A stretch of DNA of 64,000 nucleotides from positions 24,546 to 88,545 of the forward strand of contig JAGLYV010000077.1 in the NCBI GenBank assembly GCA_023131975.1, written 5' to 3'. Positions 51,979 through 52,728 of this stretch are shown here, piece by piece. The notes below the pieces were generated by a model. That model was given only the letters and a program-made list of their open reading frames with translations, did no database searches and was not told where the DNA came from. Each line of letters starts with the position of its first letter. Positions within the stretch are counted from its first letter, which is position 1. The position numbers and the translations under genes were made by a program. The DNA is from Candidatus Krumholzibacteriia bacterium (GTDB taxonomy: Bacteria; Krumholzibacteriota; Krumholzibacteriia; Krumholzibacteriales; Krumholzibacteriaceae).

Positions 51979-52024
51979 TATATAAAAAGGGAATAGCTTT
52001 AAAAAGCCGTTCCCTTTTTATATA
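51979..52024. terminator. Bidirectional intrinsic terminator
   Basis: Perfect 15-bp inverted repeat TATATAAAAAGGGAA...TTCCCTTTTTATATA giving a U tract on each strand. Confidence 0.8.
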
Positions 52025-52160
52025 AAACGAGGTTAGCTATCTCCACATTGCTTCACGTGTCATGACCAACCTAAGGCCTGAGCAGCAAGATCGCTCCGCT
52101 AAAAGATAGGCTTGGAGCTGATCGATCACGATCGCGTAGAAATCAGCTATTGCCCCGTTT
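52025..52160 (-). ncRNA. Candidate ~136-nt rod-like non-coding RNA of unknown family
   Basis: Begins 7 nt after a consensus -10 and ends at the bidirectional terminator; 5' and 3' ends pair and nested stems continue to an apical loop; G-U pairs work only on the - strand. Confidence 0.7.
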
Positions 52161-52166
52161 GTCCTG

Positions 52167-52194
52167 ATTATATGGGACGCGGAACGTATGTCAA
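52167..52194 (-). promoter_or_regulatory. Consensus sigma70 promoter driving the candidate ncRNA
   Basis: TTGACA (52194-52189)-N16-TATAAT (52172-52167), with an AT-rich UP-like tract upstream. Confidence 0.85.
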
Positions 52195-52302
52195 GGAATA
52201 AAATGAAATATTTATCAAATTCTAATATGTTTATTATCAAAAGACTAGGTAGTTATATTCATAAATCACATCAATAATATCAAGGTAGGCGCAAAAGGTA
52301 TT

Positions 52303-52344
52303 AAAATGAAACATTCCCGCCGATACACCCTATACCGACGGGAA
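52303..52344 (-). terminator. Intrinsic terminator downstream of the small ORF
   Basis: UUCCCGUCGGUAUA-GGG-UGUAUCGGCGGGAA (14 bp, 3 G-U) then UGUUUCAUUUU. Confidence 0.75.
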
Positions 52345-52371
52345 CATTTATAGAATAGGACCGAGATATCG

Positions 52372-52419
52372 TTAACGCAGCCACCAGAATAAATCGATTA
52401 TCAGCATAATGGGCAGCAT
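52372..52419 (-). CDS. Candidate 15-aa hydrophobic peptide MLPIMLIIDLFWWLR
   Basis: ATG preceded by GGAGGTGAT (52432-52424; GGAGG 8 nt before ATG); TAA stop; followed by a terminator. Confidence 0.65.
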   Translation of the reverse strand: MLPIMLIIDLFWWLR

Positions 52420-52498
52420 GGCAATCACCTCCGTATTCCTGAACAACTGCTTCTCGGTTTCAATTAACTGATCGGATCATCCGATTATAAAGTTTAGC

Positions 52499-52515
52499 TG
52501 CATTAAGTGTGCCGA
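52499..52515 (-). promoter_or_regulatory. Candidate sigma54 (-24/-12) promoter for the small ORF
   Basis: TCGGCACACTTAATGCA has GG-N10-GC and is close to consensus YTGGCACGNNNNTTGCW. Confidence 0.6.
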
Positions 52516-52728
52516 AAGCGTATATCGCTTCGCCTCGCCTGATATATCAGACGAGGCGTCCCCATTCTACGTTAAAATATATAGTTAGGCGGATAGATAA
52601 ACCGGCTAAGGTATACAGGATATATTACGCTAATTGTATTGTGGCGTATATTCTACCGGATGGGGGTCCTTTATGCTTGCGTTCCGCATTGATGCGATTC
52701 TCATTTTTAAGTTCCCAGTAATTCCTGT

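Follow-up and report, generated by a model that had tools for sequence, protein, structure and literature searches.

MgrB and SafA are small membrane proteins that act on PhoQ, a histidine kinase, and the Ibs/Sib, TisB/IstR-1 and Ldr/Rdl loci are type I toxin-antitoxin (TA) systems in which a very small hydrophobic open reading frame (ORF) lies next to a small RNA, in DNA left empty by gene callers. In Sinorhizobium meliloti, the trp attenuator RNA rnTrpL and the 14-amino acid (aa) leader peptide peTrpL act in trans (PMC7298713; 10.1101/606483). Features reminiscent of each of these systems are found in a 750-nucleotide (nt) stretch of the genome of a Candidatus Krumholzibacteriia bacterium (assembly GCA_023131975.1, contig JAGLYV010000077.1; the window is the entire 64,000-nt segment of this contig that was analysed, and all coordinates are given within it). 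The stretch (51979-52728) is bounded by a tRNA-Arg(CCT) gene on the + strand and by the stop codon of an ORF of 843 aa on the - strand. The original prediction, made from the sequence of the window, proposed that it contains two tandem small transcription units on the - strand and that their layout resembles a type I TA locus. Two complete units with promoters of different types, conserved and unannotated, are indeed found at or near the predicted positions, and all the predicted elements are found in the predicted order, namely a palindrome, a sigma54 element, a peptide ORF, a hairpin, a sigma70 promoter, a rod-shaped RNA and an end hairpin. It is very likely that the gap holds two conserved genes, both real and separable: a micro-ORF for a hydrophobic peptide and a rod-shaped small RNA (sRNA).

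The comparisons described here cover nine families of Krumholzibacteriota, designated f1 to f9, f1 being the family of the window. In a blastn search of 41 related genomes, matches were obtained in 22, including 20 of the 24 genomes of the same family, and these matches split into two blocks that correspond to the two units. The f1 comparison set consists of the window and 19 further loci of the family retrieved by similarity to the 750-nt region (n = 20). The sigma54 motif, an ORF ending in IDL[FLW]WWLR, the TTGACA promoter and the rod are all present in 20 of these 20 loci, and given this conservation the features of the locus exceed what chance would produce.

The micro-ORF and its sigma54-type promoter

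The micro-ORF (52372-52419, - strand; MLPIMLIIDLFWWLR) comprises 15 codons and a stop codon, and its translation is conserved across families. A Shine-Dalgarno sequence, GGAGGTGAT (52424-52432, - strand), is located 4 nt before the ATG, and its GG.GGTG is invariant in the 20-sequence alignment. The micro-ORF is present in all f1, f2, f9 and f6 loci that were reached through the rod, each of these loci containing exactly one match to a regular expression for the peptide, except for one that was read by eye. Codon usage was analysed in 40 distinct nine-codon cores taken from rod-anchored loci and chosen by this expression. The share of cores that differ from the consensus is 0.18, 0.008 and 0.41 at codon positions 1, 2 and 3, respectively, and the codon differences include 156 synonymous against 36 nonsynonymous ones. 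All six leucine and all six arginine codons are used among the 40 cores, and the TGG TGG pair is unchanged in 40 of 40. Because of this codon-position pattern and of the synonymous use of leucine and arginine codons, the micro-ORF is, on comparative grounds, translated and under selection at the level of the peptide.

The start codon of the micro-ORF varies (ATG, GTG or TTG), and so do the length and the sequence of the N-terminal half of the peptide, the last 9 residues being fixed. The conserved core is [LIV][IV]D[LI][LFW]WW[LM][RK], and the peptide has 0-2 further charged residues. With starts assigned heuristically, the peptides range from 14 to 22 residues and cluster at 15 aa (35/116 loci) and at 21-22 aa (48/116). 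The peptide is hydrophobic (mean Kyte-Doolittle value of 1.59 in the window), with one invariant Asp, an invariant Trp-Trp pair and a basic end; at less than 50 aa it has the size and character of a small membrane-protein regulator. The f4 and f8 peptides (19-22 residues) are acidic at the N-terminus and basic at the C-terminus and look like minimal single-pass helices. For the 21-aa f4 form, no family was recovered from Pfam or NCBIfam at E ≤ 10, and the exact sequence is absent from a collection of 15 billion proteins. A literature search for the core motifs of the peptide returned nothing relevant, only unrelated machine-learning work on antimicrobial peptides, and a search combining Krumholzibacteriota with small RNA returned nothing bearing on the locus by title, the one listed paper in which both terms occur being about CsrA.

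A back-translated pattern for D-L-[LF]-W-W-L-R matched 137 of 208 genomes of the phylum, nearly always once, and the reversed-pattern control matched 3. Two second matches were checked, and both were false positives inside long ORFs. The pattern under-counts the peptide because variants with Ile at motif position 4 or with Lys instead of Arg escape it, and direct reading of the loci was needed to recover the peptides of f7, of f8 and of a part of f3: these end in D[IL]FWWL[KR][DG] in 6 of 6 further f7 loci, in DIFWWLR[KR] in 4 of 4 f8 loci, and in DLLWWLK in 3 of 3 loci of the f3 genus g19. In f5, the peptide pattern (0/7), the phosphatase sensor domain considered below (0/7) and the rod (0/5) all gave no match. 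A stricter pattern searched against one genome per species of all prokaryotes matched at least 119 stretches; among the 80 listed stretches with DNA, 72 are short ORFs of this peptide family and 8 are unrelated. By their record labels, which are unverified, the 72 loci belong mostly to Krumholzibacteriota, with a few from Latescibacterota, Eisenbacteria, Fibrobacteraceae, Patescibacteria and others. Across the genomes compared, the peptide gene is, as far as these matches and loci indicate, single-copy, syntenic and conserved throughout the phylum.

The predicted sigma54 promoter holds in its essential spacing. The element GGCAC-N5-ATGCA (52499-52513, - strand; putative transcription start near 52489) is unique in the window, is conserved and keeps the GG and GC at the correct 10-nt spacing, but departs at two positions from the textbook TGGCAC-N5-TTGCW, for which there are 0 matches in the window. 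Its GGCA..ATGC core is invariant in 20 of 20 f1 loci (motif form GGCA[CT]-N5-[AT]TGC). Across the phylum, 92 of 116 distinct loci carry a loose motif (GG-N10-GC with TGC) upstream of the ORF, the corresponding counts being 6 for the reverse strand and 8 for shuffled sequences. A strict motif occurs in 72 of 120 loci, against 3 and 1, respectively; the median position of the motif is 149 nt before the ORF stop. The genome carries rpoN (one Sigma54_DBD match, 217 bits) and has 22 Sigma54_activat matches. The micro-ORF thus placed downstream of a conserved element is probably transcribed from its own sigma54-type promoter. One of the activators, an AAA+ protein with a Sigma54_activat match of 244 bits, is encoded in the window itself (approximately 62232-62729, - strand), about 10 kb from this promoter.

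Upstream of the sigma54-type element lies a palindrome (52531-52558) with 14-nt arms that are 93% complementary. It is absent from a relative of the same genus, and candidate roles for it are an activator site or the end of the phosphatase transcript. Genomes of the f1 genus g11 share a TTGCAT...TTGCAT repeat upstream of the sigma54-type element. Several families, including f9 and f6, share a leader motif resembling GAAGCAGG (window positions ~52451-52438), which is located 35-45 nt 5' of the start codon.

The peptide mRNA was predicted to be structured, and this applies to its 3' end but not to the molecule as a whole, which is not unusually structured overall (z = -1.51, 17 of 200 shuffles as good). 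The hairpin 3' of the micro-ORF (52309-52349, - strand) is terminator-like, with 19 pairs and a T-rich tail in a terminator scan; folding of the alignment gave a 16-pair helix in which 8 pairs show compensatory change. The homologous hairpin of f9 and f6, GGTGTTCCCG...CGGGAACACC, has no U-run after it. A tally of U-runs after the hairpin (12 of 116 loci) was unreliable, having been taken from the last helix of a 100-nt fold, and was not used.

The rod RNA

The second unit encodes an RNA of approximately 138 nt (52025-52162, - strand) that folds into a rod with the apical hairpin AGCGAAGCG; its minimum free energy (MFE) yields z = -5.99, with 0 of 200 shuffles as good. The rod is preceded by a sigma70-type promoter, TTGACA-16-TATAAT (52167-52194, - strand), that matches the consensus at 12 of 12 positions. 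TTGACA...TA[TA]A[AC]T is found in 19 of the 20 f1 loci, the remaining one having a variant -10 element, and TTGACA also stands upstream of the rod in f9, f6, f7 and f4, that is, in all families read. Upstream of the -35 element there is an A/T-rich block with TGATAA and a T-tract (52195-52240, - strand), which may act as an UP element or bind a regulator; in 17 of 20 f1 loci, TGATAA is found no more than 45 nt 5' of the -35 element, and the AT content is 0.62-0.89.

On the 3' side, a hairpin between an A-run and a T-run (51979-52024; 22-nt arms, 91% complementary, present in the MFE fold) abuts the convergent tRNA-Arg(CCT) gene (51902-51978, + strand), which was identified with ARAGORN and with Rfam (tRNA, 61.1 bits) and serves as a syntenic anchor. 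This hairpin likely terminates both the rod RNA on the - strand and the tRNA on the + strand, as the original prediction had it, and an equivalent GGGAA...TTCCC hairpin is found 3' of the rod in f1 relatives. The f9 and f6 rods (L056-L070) end in their own closing stem and a U-run, with no separate terminator hairpin. The same convergent tRNA is found 3' of the rod in f2, f4 and f7 loci and directly 3' of the peptide hairpin in f3.

The rod structure is borne out by comparison of relatives. In the 20 f1 sequences, 92.9% of the cells are paired, against 30-40% when the partners are slid, and there are 14 compensatory pairs, against 7.2 ± 1.7 in shuffles (0 of 500). In an alignment of 30 sequences from five families, which was fitted to a model and so leans to the structure by construction, 91% of the cells are paired, and compensatory change is seen at 26 of 39 pairs, compared with 13.1 ± 1.9 in shuffles (0 of 500). 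The G-U pairs in the closing stem are compatible with the - strand only. That the rod is a structured RNA encoded on the - strand is therefore a conclusion supported by covariation, and the invariance of its apical hairpin suggests a bound protein or RNA partner.

Covariance models recover one rod match per genome. With the model R1, the rod was found in 29 of 42 f1 genomes, in the only f2 genome (1/1) and in none of 8 f3 genomes. The model R2, built from five families, was searched against an even sample of 151 genomes of the phylum and matched in f1 (25/32), f2 (1/1), f7 (10/10), f6 (14/17) and f9 (8/9), in 6 of 61 f4 genomes, and in no genome of f3 (0/6), f5 (0/5) or f8 (0/9). Bias of the model, which included only four f4 sequences, may account in part for the low count in f4. 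The f4 rods are located beside a divergent TPR_21 gene, a homologue of the window ORF 55419-56087, with the convergent tRNA 3' of the rod in 4 of the 6 f4 loci read (2 by Rfam, 2 by eye). In these rods (L058, L062, L063, L071, L243 and L244), the outer helices and the CGTGA.../...ACACG core are retained, but the AGCGAAGCG hairpin at the apex, invariant elsewhere, is replaced.

At E ≤ 1, Rfam matched only the tRNA, both in the window region and in the loci of 9 relatives, and the rod matched no family in any of the 10 loci tested. The closest described RNA is 6S RNA (RF00013), which it resembles in being rod-like, 120-190 nt long and preceded by a strong promoter of the housekeeping style. Unlike 6S RNA, the rod has small internal loops and no large central bubble, and the 6S RNA of this genome is encoded on another contig. 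Identification of the rod as 6S or signal recognition particle (SRP) RNA was rejected, canonical 6S (75.8 bits) and SRP (74.1 bits) RNAs being present elsewhere in the genome. The rod is accordingly best described as a candidate for a new, so far undescribed RNA family.

The phosphatase association and alternative explanations

The 843-aa ORF that ends at the edge of the gap (52729-55260, - strand) encodes a membrane phosphatase with the Pfam domains SpoIIE (PP2C, PF07228; 6.5e-50) and GAF_3 (1.3e-6), approximately 9-10 hydrophobic segments before the GAF domain in a crude hydropathy scan, and a weak PDZ match near the N-terminus (PDZ_6, below the cut-off). The SpoIIE domain behind a GAF domain and a polytopic membrane region is shared with the SpoIIE/RsbU-type PP2C phosphatases of partner-switching systems; the protein differs from these in a PDZ-like insert that follows its first membrane helix and in the micro-ORF with which it is invariably associated. 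Orthologues were aligned across f1, f3, f4 and f6. Its sensor domain (residues 1-430) was found in f1 (35/42), f2 (1/1), f3 (5/8), f4 (91/91), f6 (22/23), f7 (11/12), f8 (10/10) and f9 (12/13), and in none of the f5 genomes (0/7).

The micro-ORF follows or abuts the phosphatase gene in all eight families in which this gene was found. It lies 3' of the phosphatase stop codon in f1, f2, f9 and f6 and in all the loci read in f4 (8/8), f3 (5/5) and f8 (4/4), and in f7 the phosphatase C-terminus was read in 7 of 8 loci. Among the 72 micro-ORF loci of the species-wide search, 58 have a PP2C C-terminus encoded in the 500 nt before the ORF. The f4 phosphatase-peptide pair is kept together approximately 160 kb from the rod and so behaves as a unit. 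Since the peptide gene stands beside the phosphatase gene in every family in which the latter was found, and some of these families have no rod match or have the rod elsewhere, the peptide is linked to the phosphatase and neither of them depends on the rod.

Most f4 genomes contain at least two matches to the phosphatase sensor domain and one match to the micro-ORF pattern, and one f4 paralogue of the phosphatase seems to be without the peptide. An apparent fusion of the phosphatase and the peptide in one f4 genome turned out to be a spurious overlapping frame, the true phosphatase stop codon being located 129 nt (43 codons) before the peptide start. In 5 of the 7 f1 genomes read, the end of the first membrane helix of the phosphatase (window 55183-55200, residues ~21-26) reads [IV]LD[LIY]FG, with the related forms VLEFFG, VLEFPG and LLEFPG in another f1 genome, f6 and f9; the likeness of this helix end to the peptide core IIDLFWW may be due to chance, mimicry or shared origin.

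Given the fixed partnership with a polytopic phosphatase, we favour a small membrane subunit or regulator as the role of the peptide. Transcription of the micro-ORF from its own sigma54-type promoter would require an enhancer-binding activator; the hydrophobic peptide of 14-22 residues would insert in the inner membrane and dock onto the multi-helix membrane domain of the adjacent PDZ-TM-GAF-PP2C phosphatase, with the invariant Asp inside the bilayer and the Trp-Trp pair and basic tail at the interface. The peptide would in this way provide a conditional, sigma54-dependent input or feedback to phosphatase signalling, much as small membrane proteins tune sensor kinases. The rod sRNA, approximately 138 nt long and driven by sigma70, would function independently of the peptide. 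The full reading, in which a membrane micro-protein under sigma54 control works together with the phosphatase and the rod represents a separate, new sRNA family, is put forward tentatively, as a proposal with somewhat less than an even chance of being right in all its parts; membrane insertion, phosphatase binding, the effect on activity and the transcript starts and ends are what we infer within it. The analogy with MgrB and SafA extends to a tiny, separately regulated hydrophobic protein and to its proposed binding to the membrane domain of a signalling enzyme; the differences are that the partner here would be a PP2C/SpoIIE-type phosphatase rather than a histidine kinase, that the gene is fixed beside its proposed target and that the peptide is about half the size.

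Several observations weigh against this reading. The loci of the codon test were selected with a peptide expression, and related genomes are not independent samples. At 15 residues, the peptide of the window is short for a membrane span. The proposed binding to the phosphatase draws on gene neighbourhood, and 14 of the 72 loci of the species-wide search have no PP2C end in the 500-nt flank. In the f1 genus g11 (G011, G019, G023, G043 and G044), the peptide-rod block is inverted in place such that the phosphatase gene converges on the 3' end of the rod, an arrangement which implies that co-transcription of the peptide and the phosphatase is not required. The peptide-to-rod adjacency is kept in f1, f2, f6, f7 and f9, at approximately 180-450 nt, and survives the g11 inversion. 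Finally, the sequencing runs in which the region was detected, in whole or in part, are 7 DNA runs from 3 cold-seep or marine-sediment metagenome studies, with no RNA run among them.

The alternative that fares best is a stand-alone small membrane or stress peptide induced through sigma54, whose place beside the phosphatase gene would merely be inherited gene order. The peptide unit has its own promoter and its own hairpin, and in g11 it is not downstream of the phosphatase gene. The wider neighbourhood, including the TPR_21 gene, the phosphatase gene and tRNA-Arg, is itself syntenic, so that adjacency alone is weak evidence for a functional link. However, the pair remains intact even when its surroundings are disrupted, as happened with the f4 relocation, and the presence and absence of the peptide and the phosphatase match across the nine families, which makes this alternative unlikely, although it deserves to be kept in view.

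A clearly smaller chance is given to a leader peptide that senses tryptophan or arrests the ribosome, or to a dual-function RNA, such that the ribosome controls the downstream hairpin and the released RNA and peptide act in trans. The invariant TGG TGG pair, the extra Trp in several relatives and the conserved hairpin 3' of the ORF fit such a leader, as does the confinement of conservation to the C-terminal ~9 residues, arrest peptides being conserved in their C-terminal part. As far as the peTrpL/rnTrpL system is outlined in the work cited above, the likeness consists in an ORF of ~14-15 codons that has tandem Trp codons close to its end and precedes a hairpin, in a transcript of sRNA size; the unit described here differs from that outline in its sigma54 promoter, in the absence of trp genes or of any conserved gene downstream, and in the conservation of the whole C-terminal motif as amino acids. 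What follows the peptide unit is variously the rod with its own promoter, a gene on the same strand, genes on the opposite strand or a convergent tRNA. The alignment fold gave no antiterminator helix, only the hairpin and a weak, G-U-rich pairing of the Shine-Dalgarno sequence, and the leader aligns poorly. Moreover, 1 to 3 residues follow WWL and the distance from the stop codon to the hairpin varies between families. Asp, Leu and Arg are kept through synonymous change, which the sensing of codon content would not require.

The two units might also be coupled without antisense pairing, through sigma54 read-through into the rod or because both products act on the same sigma-factor/phosphatase pathway. 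The peptide-to-rod order, kept in f1, f2, f6, f7 and f9 and preserved by the g11 inversion, would fit such coupling, as would the lack of a U-run after the f9 and f6 hairpins and the fact that the f4 rods, which are unlinked from the peptide, are also those without the otherwise invariant AGCGAAGCG hairpin. On the other side, no rod could be detected in f3 and f8, which retain the peptide, and a consensus promoter of its own precedes the rod in all families read. The chances of coupling of this kind are accordingly judged to be slim, slightly below those of the leader.

Antisense coupling in the manner of a type I TA module, in which the peptide would be a conditional membrane toxin and the rod an antitoxin pairing with the peptide mRNA, is much less probable still. 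The layout that had suggested it is real: a small hydrophobic ORF with a conditional promoter stands next to a strongly promoted small RNA, and the two are adjacent in five families. Co-occurrence in relatives, which the original prediction had named as a test, breaks down, however. In f3, the peptide is present and the rod is missing from all genomes searched with either model (0/8 with R1, 0/6 with R2), and in three f3 loci the convergent tRNA comes immediately after the peptide hairpin, so that a rod could not fit between them. In f8, all 4 loci read contain the peptide, and the rod was found in 0 of 9 genomes. Among the f4 genomes with a rod, two have the peptide on the same contig at a distance of approximately 160 kb, and a third has it on a different contig. 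Nor is there an excess of complementarity between the two transcripts. For 20 cognate pairs compared with dinucleotide shuffles, the best rod-mRNA duplex energy has a mean z of 0.08, with 1 of 20 below -2, and the mean length of the longest complementary run is 10.15 nt, compared with 10.75 nt when the mRNA is reversed; duplex folding over the whole length is crude in that it ignores accessibility, hence the added run-length measure, and neither is a substitute for IntaRNA or CopraRNA. One pairing alone is recurrent (13 of 20), and it involves a G-U-rich 8-mer between two invariant, already paired segments, and the antisense match originally proposed at 52469-52479 falls in a leader hairpin that is not conserved among relatives. 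No promoter-like site was found on the + strand facing the ORF. Type I toxins typically show a patchy, often multicopy pattern, and the peptide gene is single-copy and syntenic across the phylum. It is thus set apart from Ibs/Sib, TisB/IstR-1 and Ldr/Rdl by the lack of antisense excess, by an RNA that is absent or unlinked in three families and by single-copy vertical conservation; to our knowledge, the peptide, at 14-22 aa, is also mostly shorter than the shortest type I toxins. Because the units occur independently and their complementarity does not exceed the controls, the TA reading fails by the standard set in the original prediction, and the TA label should not be applied to this locus.

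Docking of the peptide C-terminus in the PDZ domain of the phosphatase has a low probability given that the last residue varies (R, K, D or G) and that the basic tail would favour a cytoplasmic C-terminus.

Significance of the two genes

Beyond the proposed regulator of the phosphatase, a bolder version can be formulated, in which the micro-protein is an obligate intramembrane subunit or allosteric switch of the PDZ-bearing PP2C phosphatase throughout Krumholzibacteriota and the rod is a housekeeping-class RNA that feeds the same sigma-factor circuit. The latter element was proposed because a gene for an RpoS/RpoD-like sigma factor lies approximately 1 kb away; in its entirety, this version is doubtful. 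On the far side of the tRNA-Arg(CCT) gene, the window (48576-51847) encodes a pcm-like methyltransferase, a small membrane protein, tRNA-Pro, an M23 peptidase (NlpD-like), a sigma70-family factor of 284 aa and apt, a gene order that resembles the pcm-nlpD-rpoS arrangement of E. coli. The gene for the 284-aa factor ends ~0.85 kb from the rod RNA.

The peptide and the rod are new, and the kinds of gene that they represent, a small membrane protein and a structured sRNA, are known. A literature search found no paper joining even three of the four subjects small membrane protein, SpoIIE, PP2C and sigma-54. With the analysis of this locus, a plausible-looking but wrong TA annotation is removed, and two unannotated, deeply conserved genes are gained from DNA left empty by gene callers in a phylum without a cultured model. 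The micro-ORF is a clear case, from comparative genomics, of a protein-coding gene of ~15 codons. The rod is a candidate for a new RNA family supported by covariation, and its covariance models can seed curation. Finally, the micro-ORF offers a testable handle on the control of a widespread, uncharacterised membrane phosphatase and, if the proposed interaction is true, it would be the first small-protein regulator described for a phosphatase of the partner-switching type.

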